IMG/VR virus record: IMGVR_UViG_2671180603_000001
Reading direction: 5' to 3' (one strand)
Source of the DNA: a virus
Taxonomy: Duplodnaviria > Heunggongvirae > Uroviricota > Caudoviricetes
Length of the DNA stretch: 13,077 nucleotides
This document shows, piece by piece, positions 6,050 through 13,077 of the stretch (positions within the stretch are counted from its first letter, which is position 1; each line of letters begins with the position of its first letter). Below the pieces are notes generated by a model that searched no databases, was not told the DNA's origin, and saw nothing but the letters and a program-made list of their open reading frames with translations. A program made the position numbers and the translations under genes.

Positions 6050-8956
6050 TTAATACTCCGTCACGTTTTCCTGTCGCCACGCCTCGTCATATTCCGATTT
6101 CGGCATATTGGCGATGTAGCTATATGGCGATCCTGATTCAAGTTGCAGGAACTGGTGCGATTGCTCGTCAAGGAACAACGGAACACCACCTTCCCAGCCT
6201 TCGCCGTTACGTTGTTTTTCAAGCATCAAAACAGATGCAGGAGACGCCAGTAGCTGTTCGTCCTTCTCTGACATCTTTTCACCACTCTGAACTCTCTGTA
6301 ACGCTCTCTCGCGAGCCTTGTTACGCCAGATGATGAAAAGGTTGTCTGTCAGGTCTGTTATCGCTCCAGAGCCTTTCACGTCCATTTTCCCGGTTGGTTT
6401 TTCTTCGCTGTCTCCTTTTCTGGAGTGAGTAACGAGAATGACGTGGGAGTTTGTTTTGTTTTTGAAGTCACAAATCGAGTCAACAAACGCTTTCTGCCCG
6501 TTATAGTCATCGTCACCTATGCCGCATTTCATCAGGCTGTCGATAATGAATAACTGGATGCCGTATCGGCGGCGAGCGTAGTCGAATATTTCGATCAGCC
6601 TGTCGGCTTTCGCCGTTCCGGTCAGGCCAAACACCCAAAGTCTTTCGTCATAAAATTTAAATGCAGAGTCAATTTCCAGCACTGGCGGCATCTTGCAGCA
6701 CGTTGCCTGACGGGTAAGTCGCTTAAGGAGAATACCAGGCTTCAGCTCAAGTGACGCGATGCACGTCTTCACACCCTGACGCATTGCCTCAAGTGCCATA
6801 TGCCCGACAACCTCGGTGTTATGCGTCGCCACATATCCCCTGGTTACATACAGGTGGCGAGGGTGATCGACCATAATACACAAGCATTCTGCATTGCCGA
6901 TTTTTTCAACATTCCTGACGAATACCCCACAGCCCTCGAATCGATGCGCAGTTAATCTGCCATTGAGTCGTGGTGAACGGATGGCCTCCCTGATTTCTCT
7001 TGTCAGTCTGATTCTTGCCTCGTATGAATCCATCCCATGCCGCTTATCGTCCTTGTATGTGTATGTCACGCCAGTTTTAACTCGCGTCCGGCATGACCCG
7101 CCGAGTGAGTTAACCAGTTGAACAACCCCATTGCGCAGTTTTTCACTTGCTGAGGAAAAAACAAGCGTTCCATCCTTCTCGACATACCCATCCGTTTCAA
7201 GCAGACCACACAGCATGCCTATACGCGTTGATTTATTTGCGGAAAAAAACACACGAGGGATGAATTTGTTTTTTGCTGTGCACCCCATTAGTCCATAACC
7301 TCGCAGGGTCTCCATGAGTGGATTTACCTGACCACGCGCCGTTGATATCAGCCAGTCCTTACCATCTCCAGAGAAGTTGTAATCAGGCAGTTCAGCCTTC
7401 ATACGCTCGATCATGTATGGCTCGACGTTTGAAAACTTCACGCTCCCATTGCTAAGACTACCATCCCCGAGAAGGGAGCCGATAACCCATGCTAATGGCT
7501 CTGAGTGGTCGCCAAAGTCACCAGTTATTTCAGGAATCCTAACGCCATTTTTGTGCCTCTTCGTTTCACTCAACCGCTTCAACCCGAAGGTATCTATCAC
7601 GCGGCGTTTCTCGCCTTTCGTGAATCCACGACTAGTGACCTCCCATAGGTGATCGCCTGCGCAATCAACATAACGACCATCTTCAAATGTGACTCGGTAA
7701 ACATCTCTAACACCCTGCGGGAATATCCCAGTGACAGTTGACGGATTGCCGTCTACTGACGCCACCTGATCGCCAATTTTTACATTCCCGTGAGTAGTCC
7801 ATGTCCCATCAGCTAAAAGAATAGGCTCATTCAGTGGGCATGCCTTTCCGTGACCGTTCACACCATTGACCAGCGTCAACTCTGCCTCACGGAACTGGAA
7901 TTTATCTGCCAGAGATTCCCACGGTGGATTAAACAGATACTGCTGCTTGCCGTAGAAAGCGTTGATAGTGTCCTGGTAAAACTCGCGCGCGCTGTAGAGT
8001 TCTTCAGGATCGAAGTAGGATGCCGTGCCGATGTACTGCCAGATTTCATCCTCGGTAACACCGTTCATCAGGCATTCGTTGATGTCTTTGTACGGCAGAG
8101 TAACAAGACGGCAACGATGTTCACCGAGTCGGCTTGCGATTTCCCTTGCGGCTTCACGACCAACATCATCAACGTCCATCGAGATGAATATTTCCTCAAA
8201 CCTGTCGAGGTTGTGATACTCAAACTCAATCCACTGTTGCTTAGCGCCTTTCCCGCCACCAAACGGCACGGATAACGCCGAGATGCCGTATTGCGCATAG
8301 CTCATACAATCAATTTCGCCTTCGCAAAGCACAACCGCCCTCACGCCAGCGTCCAGAGCCTGCCATCCGAACAGGCAAGGTTCGCAATCACCTTCTGCCA
8401 TAATGACTTTCTTCCCGTCCGGGCGCTCAGTGCTGATTCGCTTGACCTGCAACAACTCACCATCGCGTTTGTACGGAAGCACCAGAGCATCCAGTTCTCG
8501 TTCTCCATTCCACACCTTGCCGCTGACAACCTCGTAGCGCTTTACGACTTCTGGCGATATGCCACGCGATTGCAGGTACTCAAGATGGGATTCTGTTCTG
8601 GTAACGTAGTGGGCGATTTTCTTGCGATCAGGTCTGGAGAATTTCTTCTCACGTCTGGCATCGAAATGGTGATCGTCATCCTTGATACCGAGAAATGCTT
8701 TCGCTTCCTGCATAGCCTGATGCAGGTTAATTCCACGACATGCCATCCACAAATCAAGCATGTCACCGCCGTCTCCCTCAGCGAAATCAGCCCATTTTTT
8801 CTTACCGCTAAGGTTGACCTTAAGGCTGTTTCCCTTGTCACCGTTGACGTTACCGGCAACCCACTCATGCCCCTCTTTCTTGCCGTTTGGCAACAGGTGC
8901 GGAGCCACCCTGTCAACCTGCGCCCAAAGCAGGTCGCTAAGTTCTGATGGACTCAT
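6050..8956 (-). CDS. bifunctional Toprim primase - SF4 (T7 gp4/DnaB-like) helicase, intein-containing
   Basis: 968-aa ORF. Toprim motifs at residues 200-265 (VVLCEGEIDCMS, SMDVDDVG). Helicase motifs in the C-terminal part (Walker A GVNGHGKA.T split by the intein, Walker B QLFIIDSLMK, then ILVTHSRKG and KGSGAITDLTDNLFII, which parallel T7 gp4 H2-H4 as I recall them). Confidence 0.8.
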   Translation of the reverse strand: MSPSELSDLLWAQVDRVAPHLLPNGKKEGHEWVAGNVNGDKGNSLKVNLSGKKKWADFAEGDGGDMLDLWMACRGINLHQAMQEAKAFLGIKDDDHHFDARREKKFSRPDRKKIAHYVTRTESHLEYLQSRGISPEVVKRYEVVSGKVWNGERELDALVLPYKRDGELLQVKRISTERPDGKKVIMAEGDCEPCLFGWQALDAGVRAVVLCEGEIDCMSYAQYGISALSVPFGGGKGAKQQWIEFEYHNLDRFEEIFISMDVDDVGREAAREIASRLGEHRCRLVTLPYKDINECLMNGVTEDEIWQYIGTASYFDPEELYSAREFYQDTINAFYGKQQYLFNPPWESLADKFQFREAELTLVNGVNGHGKACPLNEPILLADGTWTTHGNVKIGDQVASVDGNPSTVTGIFPQGVRDVYRVTFEDGRYVDCAGDHLWEVTSRGFTKGEKRRVIDTFGLKRLSETKRHKNGVRIPEITGDFGDHSEPLAWVIGSLLGDGSLSNGSVKFSNVEPYMIERMKAELPDYNFSGDGKDWLISTARGQVNPLMETLRGYGLMGCTAKNKFIPRVFFSANKSTRIGMLCGLLETDGYVEKDGTLVFSSASEKLRNGVVQLVNSLGGSCRTRVKTGVTYTYKDDKRHGMDSYEARIRLTREIREAIRSPRLNGRLTAHRFEGCGVFVRNVEKIGNAECLCIMVDHPRHLYVTRGYVATHNTEVVGHMALEAMRQGVKTCIASLELKPGILLKRLTRQATCCKMPPVLEIDSAFKFYDERLWVFGLTGTAKADRLIEIFDYARRRYGIQLFIIDSLMKCGIGDDDYNGQKAFVDSICDFKNKTNSHVILVTHSRKGDSEEKPTGKMDVKGSGAITDLTDNLFIIWRNKARERALQRVQSGEKMSEKDEQLLASPASVLMLEKQRNGEGWEGGVPLFLDEQSHQFLQLESGSPYSYIANMPKSEYDEAWRQENVTEY
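6818..7840 (-). mobile_element. intein with LAGLIDADG homing-endonuclease domain (residues 373-713 of the primase-helicase)
   Basis: Starts with Cys373 in a block-A-like context (CPLNEPILLADGTW...VKIGDQVASVDG, similar in pattern to the Sce VMA intein start). Ends ...YVATHN followed by Thr714, the canonical HN plus nucleophile. Two LAGLIDADG-like motifs inside (WVIGSLLGDGS at 490-500, GMLCGLLETDGYV at 580-592). Boundary codons checked on the DNA. Confidence 0.75.
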
Positions 8957-10515: not shown

Positions 10516-10740
10516 TTATGCTGCCTGATTCGGTTTTGGAAACAGGTGTGGTAAATCTGGGCGAATTTCGTAAGCCTTGATCTGCCCTCCAGTGGCGTTA
10601 ACGATGGCGGTAACTTTCTCTGGAGAAACCTGCCCGCCTTTCAGCCATTTGTGTACTGCTGGCTGCGTTACACCACACTTGTCGGCAAGCCGCTTTTGAC
10701 TACCGACAATCTTCAAGGCTCGTTGAATTACTAAATTCAT
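10516..10740 (-). CDS. cro: Cro-like HTH repressor
   Basis: 74 aa from the ATG at 10740 (AGAGGT Shine-Dalgarno 7 nt upstream; track ORF extends to 10761). HTH segment QKRLADKCGVTQPAVHKWL. Divergent from the cI-like gene. Confidence 0.7.
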   Translation of the reverse strand: MNLVIQRALKIVGSQKRLADKCGVTQPAVHKWLKGGQVSPEKVTAIVNATGGQIKAYEIRPDLPHLFPKPNQAA

Positions 10741-10761
10741 GAGCATACCTCTTTCAGCCAT

Positions 10762-10851
10762 TACTTATAACCAAGGATAACTCAAGTTATAAAAGATAGC
10801 AATAACCTTTATTATTTTACTTTGGATAACCGTAGTTATAGATTTGTGGAT
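10762..10851. promoter_or_regulatory. right operator region with divergent promoters for cro and cI
   Basis: Three 14-bp sites of form ATAAC-N4-GTTAT at 24-25 bp spacing: 10777-10790 (ATAACTCAAGTTAT), 10802-10815 (ATAACCTTTATTAT, imperfect), 10826-10839 (ATAACCGTAGTTAT). Candidate cI promoter: TTTTAC (10815-10820) and TATAGA (10837-10842), which would give a near-leaderless cI mRNA. Candidate cro promoter -10 TATAAG on the minus strand (10764-10769). Confidence 0.5.
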
Positions 10852-11559
10852 ATGAAAACATTCGCAGAAAGACTAAATGCAGCCATGAGATCGGCAGGGG
10901 TGTCGCAATCACAGCTTGCGGACATGGTTGGAATATCTCAGCCAGCCATACAGAAGATGTCATCCGGTAAAACAAACGGATCTCGCAAGATGGTTGAGTT
11001 AGCTAATGCTTTAAAAGTACGCCCTGAATGGCTTAGTTCTGGTATTGGTGAAATGAGGGATGGTACACATGAAGAACCATCCAATATCCGTGAGTCATCT
11101 TTAAAAGCTGTGGTATGGGAAGACATTAAAAAAAACGATGACGAGTTTGTCGCATTGCCTCTTCTTAACGTTTCGCTTTCGGCTGGAAGCGGTAGCTGCG
11201 AGATAGAAGAATCATCAGAGTTCTCTTTGGTTTTCAGAAAGTACTATCTGAAAAAGATGGGGGTAACTGAAAGTTCTGCCAAGCTGGTAAGGGTAACAGG
11301 TCAAAGCATGGAACCAACTCTTCACGATGGCGATGTTGTTGGTGTTAACACACAAGATACCACCATCAGAGATGGTAAAACCTACGCTATTTGCCAGTCT
11401 GATTTGTTGCGAGTAAAAACATTAATCGCCACTCCTACATCGGTGATAATCAGATCAATAAATCGCGAAGAGTACCCGGATGAAGTAATGGATAGAGATG
11501 AATTTCATAAAACCGTAAGGATTATTGGCAGAGTATTCTGGTCATCGCATAGCTGGTAA
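10852..11559 (+). CDS. cI: CI-type prophage repressor (HTH plus S24 LexA-like autopeptidase domain)
   Basis: 235 aa from the ATG at 10852 (track ORF begins at TTG 10822). N-terminal HTH (QSQLADMVGISQPAIQKM); C-terminal S24 motifs (Ala-Gly site in LSAGSG, GQSMEP serine motif, downstream Lys in LLRVKTL). Confidence 0.85.
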   Translation: MKTFAERLNAAMRSAGVSQSQLADMVGISQPAIQKMSSGKTNGSRKMVELANALKVRPEWLSSGIGEMRDGTHEEPSNIRESSLKAVVWEDIKKNDDEFVALPLLNVSLSAGSGSCEIEESSEFSLVFRKYYLKKMGVTESSAKLVRVTGQSMEPTLHDGDVVGVNTQDTTIRDGKTYAICQSDLLRVKTLIATPTSVIIRSINREEYPDEVMDRDEFHKTVRIIGRVFWSSHSW

Positions 11560-11596
11560 CCAGTGGCCTGAAGAAACGTTTGGGTGAGGAGGATAG

Positions 11597-11938
11597 ATGG
11601 CGTTCACTGACCTTGAATATCAAGCGGTCAAAAAAGAAGTTCACCAATTCATTGAAAGCATAAGGCCGCCTGAACATATCCGCAATGAACTGGATATTGT
11701 TTATAGCATCAATGACCAAACGATAGATATCGGCGAACAGCGCCCCGTGTGGCAGGGCAACCCAGGTGAAACAAACATCCTGCCATCAGCAAGAATCAAG
11801 TACATACGTTCTCTGGATAGATGGAAAATCTATTGGATGCGGAAGGATATGAAATGGCATCAGTACAGTACTGAACTTTCGCTGACTGATGCGCTTGAGC
11901 TTGTGCGTGCTGACCCGGATTGCTGCTTCTTCGGATGA
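11597..11938 (+). CDS. hypothetical protein, 113 aa, in the rexA-equivalent slot
   Basis: Consensus GAGGAGG Shine-Dalgarno (11586-11592) 4 nt before the ATG, 38 nt after the cI stop with no terminator between, so probably co-transcribed with cI. Contains WxxYWMRKDxKWHxY and a terminal CCFFG. I cannot assign a family. Confidence 0.7.
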   Translation: MAFTDLEYQAVKKEVHQFIESIRPPEHIRNELDIVYSINDQTIDIGEQRPVWQGNPGETNILPSARIKYIRSLDRWKIYWMRKDMKWHQYSTELSLTDALELVRADPDCCFFG

Positions 11939-12100
11939 GTGAAGAGACATTTTGGTGATGGATGGTCGCAGAAGTGCGGCCTTTAATGTAATCGAAGAAA
12001 AGTAATCCTTGTAAAACTTGATTTGACTGTATTGTCACAAAGAAAGGAATCAACGATCGTTTCTTGGGTCTTGATTTGTTTTGACGATCAAATTAGTATT

Positions 12101-12127
12101 GCCTCATCAACTGTATGAGGCTTTTTT
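12101..12127 (+). terminator. rho-independent terminator abutting the next start codon
   Basis: GCCTCAT-CAACTGT-ATGAGGC (7-bp stem) followed by TTTTTT, then directly the ATG at 12128. The 3-prime arm contains GAGG, the only Shine-Dalgarno-like element for the 177-aa gene. Confidence 0.65.
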
Positions 12128-12661
12128 ATGCAAACCAAAAGCTACACCATCAAAGCATTTCAGGACTTCTTACAGATGCTTCCTGAGCTTGGTATCGTCA
12201 ATGATGCTACAGCCCGCAATCTCCGTGACTCTTCCCTGCGCCTTCTTACTGTTCTTGGGTCGGATTTCACCGATGCCGATATCCGTGATTATAGCGTTGC
12301 CAACTTAGCAAGTTCGTACGCAGACTCAGCAGAAAGCAAACCCTCTGAATCATCTTTGCAGGCATACAAAAGCCGGATGCAAAGTGCTATTGATAAATTT
12401 ATCTCCTACCAGAATGGTGAGATTAATGTGTCAGTTGGTGATGTAAATAAAAAAAAGCAGCGTAAAAAGATGGCACCTAAGAAGAAGGCGGTAACTGACG
12501 TACAGGTTGGTGTAAAAACATTTGAACTGCCGATTCCATTGCGCGGAGATCTTATCGTCACCATTGGCAACCTGCCTCGCGACCTGACAAAAGATGAAGC
12601 CAAGCGTATCAGTCTGATTGTGGAATCTTTTGCTATGATTGATGGCGGAACAAAAGAATAA
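12128..12661 (+). CDS. hypothetical protein, 177 aa, with Lys-rich linker
   Basis: Long ORF with a clear stop, bracketed by terminators on both sides. About 100-aa N-terminal domain, a highly basic linker (NKKKQRKKMAPKKK) and about 50-aa C-terminal domain. No family recognised. Confidence 0.65.
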   Translation: MQTKSYTIKAFQDFLQMLPELGIVNDATARNLRDSSLRLLTVLGSDFTDADIRDYSVANLASSYADSAESKPSESSLQAYKSRMQSAIDKFISYQNGEINVSVGDVNKKKQRKKMAPKKKAVTDVQVGVKTFELPIPLRGDLIVTIGNLPRDLTKDEAKRISLIVESFAMIDGGTKE

Positions 12662-12662
12662 A

Positions 12663-12684
12663 GCCCCGCGGCAACGGGGCTTTT
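12663..12684 (+). terminator. terminator-like hairpin after the 177-aa gene
   Basis: GCCCCG-CGGCAA-CGGGGC followed by TTTT, immediately after the TAA stop. Confidence 0.5.
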
Positions 12685-12834
12685 GGGGTCGGAAATATTT
12701 CCAGTATTTCCGAAGTGTATGGAGGATTACCTACCGCTACACCCTTGGCAACCGCAAGCCAAGGATAGCGGTTCTCCCAACAAACTACAACCTGTTCGGG
12801 TAAACAGGCTGTATACAAAAACAGGAGAAAAGCT

Positions 12835-12969
12835 ATGGCTCACGATGTTAATCGCGATGACTTCATCTACGAACACGACAAGCCGGTTTATGTGCGCAGT
12901 TACTGCCGCATACGTTTCGGTGAGCTCGAACATGTTCGTCAGCACTTCCGCTCTTATCCGAGCTGCTGA
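12835..12969 (+). CDS. small hypothetical protein (44 aa)
   Basis: ATG preceded at 6 nt by AGGAGA. Translation MAHDVNRDDFIYEHDKPVYVRSYCRIRFGELEHVRQHFRSYPSC (Cys/His-containing). Too short for the ORF track; followed by a terminator. Confidence 0.45.
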   Translation: MAHDVNRDDFIYEHDKPVYVRSYCRIRFGELEHVRQHFRSYPSC

Positions 12970-12986
12970 AAATAACTAAATCTCAA

Positions 12987-13013
12987 ACCCGGCTTCCGCG
13001 CCGGGTTTTCTTT
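12987..13013 (+). terminator. rho-independent terminator
   Basis: ACCCGGC-TTCCGC-GCCGGGT hairpin followed by TTTTCTTT, after the 44-aa ORF. Confidence 0.6.
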
Positions 13014-13077
13014 GCCTCGCGATCGTCCCCCATATTTAAATAGCTGCGCTTAATACCGCTACACTTTTGCCAGCCCA

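Follow-up and report, generated by a model that had tools for sequence, protein, structure and literature searches.

A hairpin masking the ribosome-binding site of a prophage accessory gene: a candidate insulator of a mobile cassette

The stretch of DNA analyzed here (IMG/VR record IMGVR_UViG_2671180603_000001, 13,077 nucleotides [nt]; hereafter, the window) corresponds to the region for immunity and replication in a lambdoid prophage of the Stx type. On its plus strand, behind the repressor operon, lies a gene for a protein of 177 amino acids (aa), and immediately upstream of this gene is a small RNA hairpin which contains the Shine-Dalgarno sequence of the gene and is separated from the start codon only by a tract of 6 T residues (T6). 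On balance, this hairpin probably insulates the mobile, moron-type accessory cassette to which it belongs, a reading which builds on the hairpin structure, on conservation that preserves its pairing, on the geometry of the adjacent promoter and on a computed difference in the accessibility of the ribosome-binding site. RNA reading in from the repressor promoters through the cI and DUF3024 genes, and past a weak hairpin at 11964-11981, would contain both arms of the stem; the CCUC of the 5' arm would pair with the GAGG of the Shine-Dalgarno sequence and block ribosome loading on the read-in RNA, and in the E. coli/Shigella lineage the U6 run would terminate part of these transcripts at the start codon. 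The sigma-70-type promoter of the cassette would instead initiate transcription within the 5' arm, near A12106, and the resulting mRNA, with a leader of approximately 22 nt and no masking arm, would escape termination, keep its Shine-Dalgarno sequence free and be translated. The 177-aa protein would then be made only as the cassette's own promoter dictates, wherever the cassette inserts. Within this scheme, we infer where transcription starts, how much read-through occurs, how efficiently it is terminated and how translation responds.

The hairpin, the ribosome-binding site and the promoter

An earlier, sequence-only reading of the window had described a hairpin in front of the 177-aa gene with T6 ending at the ATG (12101-12130), and letter-by-letter inspection confirmed it. 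On the plus strand, TAGTAT (12094-12099) and a single t are followed by the 5' arm GCCTCAT (12101-12107), the 7-nt loop CAACTGT (12108-12114), the 3' arm ATGAGGC (12115-12121), T6 (12122-12127) and ATG (12128-12130), with the arms and loop delimited from the sequence and by RNAfold. The anti-Shine-Dalgarno CCTC (12102-12105) of the 5' arm pairs with the Shine-Dalgarno GAGG (12117-12120) of the 3' arm. As had also been noted, this GAGG is the sole Shine-Dalgarno-like element, and no other purine-rich one lies within 20 nt 5' of the ATG. It is 7 nt from the ATG; the T6 tract, which gives the hairpin its terminator form in this lineage, also spaces the two. The first methionine of the 177-aa protein is aligned with the first residue of all homologues, and ATG 12128 is therefore the true start.

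In a terminator scan, the hairpin at 12101-12121 appears with a 7-nt loop and 7 pairs, of which 4 are G-C. Its RNAfold energy is -10.1 kcal/mol (z = -2.55; 4 of 200 shuffles fold equally well), and it still forms in a 251-nt fold. Positions 12101-12127 have the stem of an intrinsic terminator (approximately 5-14 base pairs [bp] closing a short loop), among the weaker ones in that range, and in the window lineage the U-run is provided by T6 directly 3' of the stem. The scan of the whole window returned 24 terminator-like sites, compared to 13.6 ± 3.8 in shuffles. Thus, judged from the window alone, the hairpin is only mildly above chance, and its significance derives from its conservation in homologous loci. 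A bidirectional terminator at 12101-12121 was ruled out, the minus strand having no T-run past the stem, as was an attenuator with alternative pairing, no such pairing being present in the 251-nt fold. At the hairpin site, no Rfam family matched at either gathering or permissive thresholds.

The hairpin changes the computed accessibility of the ribosome-binding site. In all 13 variants of the leader, read-through RNA leaves the Shine-Dalgarno sequence unpaired with a probability of 0.00-0.05, and opening the region from the Shine-Dalgarno sequence to +5 in this RNA costs 9-15.6 kcal/mol, compared to 4-8 kcal/mol in promoter-initiated RNA, which was modelled as starting 5-9 nt past the -10 hexamer. 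For 2 homologues without the hairpin, the opening cost does not differ between read-through and promoter-initiated RNA.

The sequence-only reading had further proposed an internal promoter which starts inside the hairpin and exposes the ribosome-binding site. Its coordinates (-35 hexamer TTGATT at 12071-12076, 17-nt spacer, -10 hexamer TAGTAT at 12094-12099, plus strand) are correct, and the proposal gains support from comparison, namely from the conserved hexamers, their spacing and the geometry of the -10 hexamer and the arm. The -35 hexamer is invariant in all 13 distinct hairpin-bearing sequences, and the -10 hexamer reads TATTAT, TAATAT, TACTAT, TATCAT or TACCAT in homologues. The motif TTGATT-N17-TANNAT is present in every hairpin-bearing homologue, with the 17-nt spacing fixed and the spacer letters differing. 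It occurs once in the window, against 0.06 occurrences expected, and a single time in each of 34 loci, always in the same position upstream of the gene, apart from one further match approximately 900 nt upstream in L032. Some hairpin-less relatives carry TTGATA or TTGATC in place of TTGATT; hairpin-less relatives, including those from Burkholderiales, have promoter-like hexamers approximately 24-33 nt before the ATG, some of them near-consensus (e.g., TTGACA/TAAAAT in L005).

In all 13 hairpin-bearing variants, the -10 hexamer ends 0-1 nt ahead of the 5' arm; the predicted start therefore falls inside the arm, which would free the Shine-Dalgarno sequence. The usual distance of 7 nt past the -10 hexamer, together with a TCAT conserved at the expected start position in these variants, places the start at arm position 6-7, which in the window is A12106 (range 12105-12109). 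By comparative criteria, the internal promoter thus appears to be real. The operator search found no ATAAC-N4-GTTAT operator near the cassette promoter; control of this promoter by cI is ruled out on this ground, and the promoter can therefore be active in lysogens. A further copy of the -35 region, CTTGATT at 12017-12023 (plus strand), lies 53 nt before the CTTGATT at 12070-12076 that holds the -35 hexamer and is conserved in window-type homologues (alignment A3). At 17 nt it is followed by GAAAGG, GATAGG or GATCGG and has no -10 hexamer; a second upstream promoter, or a small RNA ending at the hairpin, was ruled out on this basis. This upstream copy could serve as a site for a regulator, or it could be what remains of a promoter duplication.

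Conservation of the hairpin among homologous loci

Homologues of the 177-aa protein are found in Enterobacterales, with distant ones in Burkholderiales, and the CCTC/GAGG pairing is retained in homologues down to 52% protein identity. The window type, GCCTCAT/ATGAGGC, and the Serratia and metagenome types are alike. The Salmonella/Citrobacter type, CACCTCATA-N7-TATGAGGTG, forms 10 bp (-12.6 to -13.1 kcal/mol), the helix of the Enterobacter type has 11 bp, and the Yersinia type, TCCTCATCAA-N5-TTGGTGAGGA, forms 11 bp (-14.6 kcal/mol), the helix being lengthened with different extra pairs in each lineage. The outermost stem pair is G-C, A-U or U-A among the variants, and the distance between CCTCAT and ATGAGG is 7, 9, 11 or 18 nt among lineages. 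Three separate C-to-U changes in the 5' arm (in L019, L049, and L056) leave G.U pairs, and such changes would preserve the pairing only in plus-strand RNA. Overall, 91%-95% of the cells are paired, compared to 28%-56% in controls in which the partner was slid. Alignment with MAFFT followed by RNAalifold on the 13 leader variants gave no pairs, the 3' arms being out of register, and alignment A2 behaved likewise; conservation was therefore assessed from per-sequence folds, an arms-only alignment and a covariance-model alignment. The covariance model missed L032, L056, and L074 and produced one spurious minus-strand match in L054.

The T6 tract is confined to E. coli/Shigella/Serratia-type sequences, and the tails elsewhere are GTTTT, GTTCT, GTATC or ACGTTCA. 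Since the T-tract is lost where the hairpin is kept, masking appears to be the conserved function and termination a lineage-specific addition. L056, whose upstream gene lies on the opposite strand, has retained the hairpin as well. According to the sequence-only reading, read-through transcripts would either terminate or stay masked. The masking part stands, with GAGG fully paired and the pairing kept, but termination cannot be generalized, the terminator being secure only in the E. coli/Shigella/Serratia-type sequences. The accompanying claim, that expression is uncoupled from cI read-through, fared in the same way: comparison argues for it through masking and the internal promoter, but not through termination as a general function.

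In 4 loci (L025, L026, L028, and L074), an ATG in the 3' arm lies in frame 12 nt upstream of the start codon and would place MRCF before the normal methionine. The extra ATG in the 3' arm of the Salmonella/Citrobacter type has no Shine-Dalgarno sequence of its own, and the equivalent ATG of the window, at 12115, is out of frame.

Alternative explanations for the hairpin

The hairpin could be a plain intrinsic terminator of the cI-DUF3024 operon, similar to the terminator of the lambda immunity region, with its overlap with the Shine-Dalgarno sequence incidental. Its form, with 7 bp, 4 G-C pairs and T6, suits this role, as does its position 163 nt past the DUF3024 stop codon on the same strand, behind a hairpin (11964-11981) which has a poor T-tail here. 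We nevertheless regard this explanation as unlikely: the hairpin moves with the 177-aa cassette rather than with whatever genes precede it; it persists where the T-tract has been destroyed (ACGTTCA, GTATC, GTTCT) and, in L056, behind the opposite-strand gene; and the invariant core is the pairing of the anti-Shine-Dalgarno and Shine-Dalgarno sequences. Moreover, a promoter is conserved upstream of the stem, and its transcripts would be killed if they included the whole stem. The hairpin could also be part of the gene's own leader, transcribed from a start upstream of 12101, where it would act as a constitutive damper or as a sensor for temperature, a small RNA or a protein. Leader hairpins that hide the Shine-Dalgarno sequence are common, e.g., the small hairpin of sigG (PMC5942855) and the leader of IS200 (PMC4513863), and the start at 12106 is a prediction only. 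Yet the sole conserved promoter is placed so as to start inside the 5' arm in all 13 variants, and no alternative -10 hexamer was found upstream, including behind the CTTGATT at 12017 with its GAAAGG, GATAGG or GATCGG. As for a sensor, the stems are canonical throughout and stable, with energies of -10 to -14.6 kcal/mol at 37°C, unlike known RNA thermometers of the fourU or ROSE kind, and the predicted start leaves the 5' arm outside the gene's own leader, counting further against the thermometer class; the 251-nt fold shows no alternative anti-terminator pairing, and Rfam gave no match. We hold the own-leader explanation to be improbable.

Viewed as DNA, the same inverted repeat is a perfect 7-bp palindrome at approximately +1 to +16 of the promoter and could be the operator of a dimeric repressor sitting over the transcription start; the 177-aa protein itself may bind DNA, judging from a weak fold similarity of its model to integrase N-terminal domains. 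Such an operator is very hard to reconcile with the comparison. Half-site spacings of 7, 9, 11, and 18 nt suit an RNA stem but not the footprint of a fixed dimer, and with such variation a fixed protein operator is excluded; C-to-T changes within the 5' arm would be tolerated only as plus-strand G.U pairs; and one of the half-sites is already accounted for by its Shine-Dalgarno function.

Several points weigh against the hairpin being an insulator. Promoter-initiated RNA keeps weak predicted structure at the Shine-Dalgarno sequence and AUG, costing approximately 5.6 kcal/mol to open, and the window promoter matches 8 of the 12 sigma-70 consensus positions, which leaves it under the cut-off of the promoter scanner, so that it was not listed. 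Covariation is thin, with double changes at one stem position only, as the Shine-Dalgarno side is frozen by its other function, and much of the apparent conservation could reflect shared ancestry. In L002, the stem is weakened to -3.2 kcal/mol, and L051 and L053 (56%-59% identity) have no hairpin, which is therefore dispensable. No published transcription start, 3' end or translation measurement was found for the locus or its homologues.

The cassette, its prophage context and related systems

The 177-aa gene (12128-12661, plus strand; phrog_2602) encodes an N-terminal four-helix domain, a lysine-rich linker and a conserved C-terminal motif, KTFELPIPLR...NLPRDLT..EA.RI. Directly after its stop codon, a G+C-rich hairpin, AAAGCCCCG-N6-CGGGGCTTT, with a T4 run (12660-12684, plus strand; -15.3 kcal/mol) is probably the terminator of the gene and possibly bidirectional, the scan listing it on the minus strand. 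Next come a 44-aa gene (12835-12969, plus strand; phrog_21154; MAHDVNRDDFIYEHDKPVYVRSYCRIRFGELEHVRQHFRSYPSC) and a terminator hairpin with a stem at approximately 12985-13008 and a T-rich TTCTTT. Most homologous loci, though not every one, have a 44/45-aa gene downstream of the 177-aa gene, and the 2 genes probably form one cassette in the rex position. The region 10700-13032 of the window is 96.6% identical to Escherichia phage SH2026Stx1, in which the N gene comes next, past the window end; given the gene order from cI to N, the 177-aa gene takes the place of lambda rexAB.

The genes upstream of the cassette differ between loci. The cassette lies behind cI repressors of different immunity types (L047, L048, L053, L058, and L032), behind DUF3024 (the window, L057, and L051), behind dinI at a prophage end (L049, L050, and L026), behind the integrase gene of Yersinia phage YP3 (L074), or next to a Dam methylase gene on the other strand (L054). 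In most loci, the upstream cI, DUF3024, dinI or int gene is co-oriented with the cassette. Thus, the 177-aa gene, often together with the 44-aa gene, is a mobile accessory cassette which recurs in at least 4 prophage contexts. As expected of morons, it has its own promoter and its own terminator, both recognized by motifs only, is present or absent among related phages and occurs in varied contexts; its G+C content does not deviate, being 0.41-0.47 across cI, DUF3024 and the cassette.

In the window, the repressor operon includes a cI-type repressor gene (10853-11559, plus strand) whose product has helix-turn-helix and S24 peptidase domains (Pfam HTH_3 and Peptidase_S24) and corresponds to the CI-like repressor of SH2026Stx1; the mechanically called open reading frame (ORF) begins at TTG 10822, and the first ATG is at 10853. 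The cro gene lies on the minus strand (10516-10761), and 4 ATAAC-N4-GTTAT operators are located at 10767-10839. The DUF3024 gene (11597-11938, plus strand; Pfam DUF3024, 2.4e-31; PADLOC candidate defence family PDC-S43, 7e-42) is probably co-transcribed with cI. VT2-Sakai contains a frameshifted remnant of it, and a literature search found no paper containing "DUF3024". The hairpin at the end of the DUF3024 module, GGTCGCA-GAAG-TGCGGCC (11964-11981, plus strand; -12 kcal/mol; tail TTTAATG), sits on a mosaic junction: many other Stx phages are homologous in the DUF3024 module alone, up to approximately 11982. In VT2-Sakai, T6 comes directly after this stem; in P27, in which the stk operon continues, there is no T-run behind it. 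How strong the terminator is thus depends on the module that has been joined. In the window, the hairpin would be a weak terminator at best, and with its T-tract lost at the mosaic junction, read-in to the cassette is plausible.

The AlphaFold2 model of the 177-aa protein has a mean predicted local distance difference test score (pLDDT) of 71. Its N-terminal domain of four helices is modelled with confidence, the lysine-rich linker is disordered, and the C-terminal unit is small. Foldseek returned only weak matches (E of approximately 0.5) to the integrase N-terminal domains 3lys and 2kob, a likeness which may serve as a lead and not as an assignment. Pfam gave only a sub-threshold match to CagZ, and searches of NCBIfam, PADLOC and PDB sequences returned nothing for the protein. 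P0006, the Salmonella or Enterobacter version of the protein, is on 235 contigs. In the clusters of P0001 and P0006 (phrog_36396), many genomes have nothing but a 59-63-aa ORF that matches the conserved C-terminal portion of the 177-aa protein, with 311 and 613 contigs for the 2 commonest forms of this ORF; either the gene is often truncated, or the C-terminal domain has a gene of its own.

Two Dam sites (GATC) are located around the promoter. One lies within the conserved ACGATCG (12053-12059, plus strand; GATC at 12055-12058), approximately 73 nt before the ATG and at approximately -52 from the predicted start. The other lies in the promoter spacer, within a CGATC (12085-12089, plus strand; GATC at 12086-12089) that is invariant amid variable spacer letters in the window-type sequences (C147-C151 of alignment A3). 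The 2 sites, 31 bp apart, flank the -35 hexamer and are found in L002, L047, L051, L053, L055, L057, L061 and other loci. Across 28 upstream regions, GATC is approximately 6-fold denser upstream of the homologues than in the flanks (1.93 compared to 0.32 per 120 nt), and it recurs at -70 to -75 even in distant variants. The conserved sites suggest methylation-sensitive or SeqA-type control, or a regulator site that contains GATC; these GATC sites in and upstream of the promoter are the only hints of conditional control. A bolder extension, in which the 177-aa/44-aa unit is a self-insulated cassette with the logic of IS10, seems doubtful to us: outside transcripts would be both terminated and silenced, the promoter would be gated by Dam methylation or SeqA, and the protein would be made only after replication or upon the entry of under-methylated DNA.

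The sequence-only reading had likened the start of the 177-aa gene to a terminator-then-start arrangement at 5992-5975. The site exists, but the likeness does not extend to the masking, the Shine-Dalgarno sequence there lying downstream of the terminator and outside the stem. On the minus strand, a hairpin (6020-5997) and a T-tail (5996-5989) are followed by GGGGGAGAGGG (5988-5978) and GTG at 5975. Here an ordinary terminator comes behind the replication gene, and the next gene begins with an exposed Shine-Dalgarno sequence. The replication protein (968 aa; 6050-8956, minus strand) combines Toprim primase and AAA_25 helicase-like domains with an inserted intein at approximately residues 379-634, which matches Hint and LAGLIDADG homing-endonuclease domains. 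Also on the minus strand, Rfam matches at 3532-3729 comprise a C4 antisense RNA (3532-3616), isrK (3643-3716) and a c4 a1/b1 target (3677-3729), upstream of antirepressor-type ORFs at 2793-3479 and 1697-2467 (minus strand); together, the C4 RNAs and these ORFs are a P1/P7-style c4/ant immunity module in a lambdoid Stx-type prophage. Downstream of the antiterminator gene Q (533-1156, minus strand) are two tRNA genes (120-192 and 201-272, minus strand), in the position usual upstream of stx in Stx phages.

The mechanism proposed for the cassette introduces no new principle and is textbook for T4, sigG and insertion sequences. The T4 genes e, soc, 49 and I-TevI have a ribosome-binding-site hairpin with a late promoter in its 5' half (PMC3014915). 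As in these genes, long upstream transcripts of the cassette would fold a helix burying the Shine-Dalgarno sequence and/or the AUG, and the promoter overlaps the DNA of the 5' strand. In T4, the arrangement provides early-to-late timing through a phage-specific late promoter, whereas the promoter here is of the sigma-70 type and the setting is a temperate prophage; unlike in T4, the upstream RNA here would come from a repressor operon, and the hairpin has a T-tract and could terminate. The same masking logic applies to the large read-through hairpin of B. subtilis sigG (PMC5942855). Like the sigG hairpin, that of the cassette would form only in read-through RNA of the upstream operon and not in RNA from the gene's own promoter. 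The sigG hairpin is far larger (more than 20 bp), sits at a developmental gene of the chromosome and is not a terminator, whereas the helix here has 7-11 bp and belongs to a mobile cassette.

In IS10 and IS50, read-through transcripts are subject to fold-back inhibition, and the IS10 promoter is Dam-sensitive. The cassette resembles such insertion sequences in being a mobile gene that would be shielded from incoming transcription by termination and/or masking of the Shine-Dalgarno sequence, and it resembles IS10 in having GATC sites in its promoter, which are conserved here, with any Dam effect putative. No inverted terminal repeats or transposase were seen at the cassette, which, unlike insertion sequences, is not a transposon. 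IS200 has a left-end terminator plus a stem-loop hiding the Shine-Dalgarno sequence (PMC4513863). There, the terminator and the masking stem are separate hairpins, with the masking stem in the element's own leader, whereas here one hairpin would do both jobs.

Like lambda rexA and rexB, the cassette occupies the cI-to-N interval, the home of lysogen-expressed exclusion genes in lambdoid phages. The lambda rexAB genes are co-transcribed with cI; the cassette, by contrast, appears to be built to avoid co-transcription with cI. Morons are independent promoter-gene-terminator units expressed from repressed prophages (PMC3594210). The cassette is like them: it is accessory, found in some related phages and not in others, and has a promoter of its own and a hairpin terminator. 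It differs from usual morons in that its G+C content is that of the surroundings and an upstream masking hairpin is added.

If the insulator reading is correct, an accessory gene moving among prophages would keep its own expression control wherever it is inserted, with a single 21-nt hairpin giving both termination and translational silencing of foreign transcripts. This would matter for the cassette of the window, which lies directly behind a repressor operon that is constantly transcribed in lysogens, and heavily so during the establishment of lysogeny. It would also provide a search rule for insulated cassettes, namely an anti-Shine-Dalgarno sequence right after a -10 hexamer. Gating by Dam or SeqA, if true, would suit a superinfection-exclusion or defence function in the rex position. 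For Stx-type phages of E. coli and Shigella, the finding would mean that the 177-aa/44-aa gene pair occupying the place of rex is deliberately uncoupled from cI.

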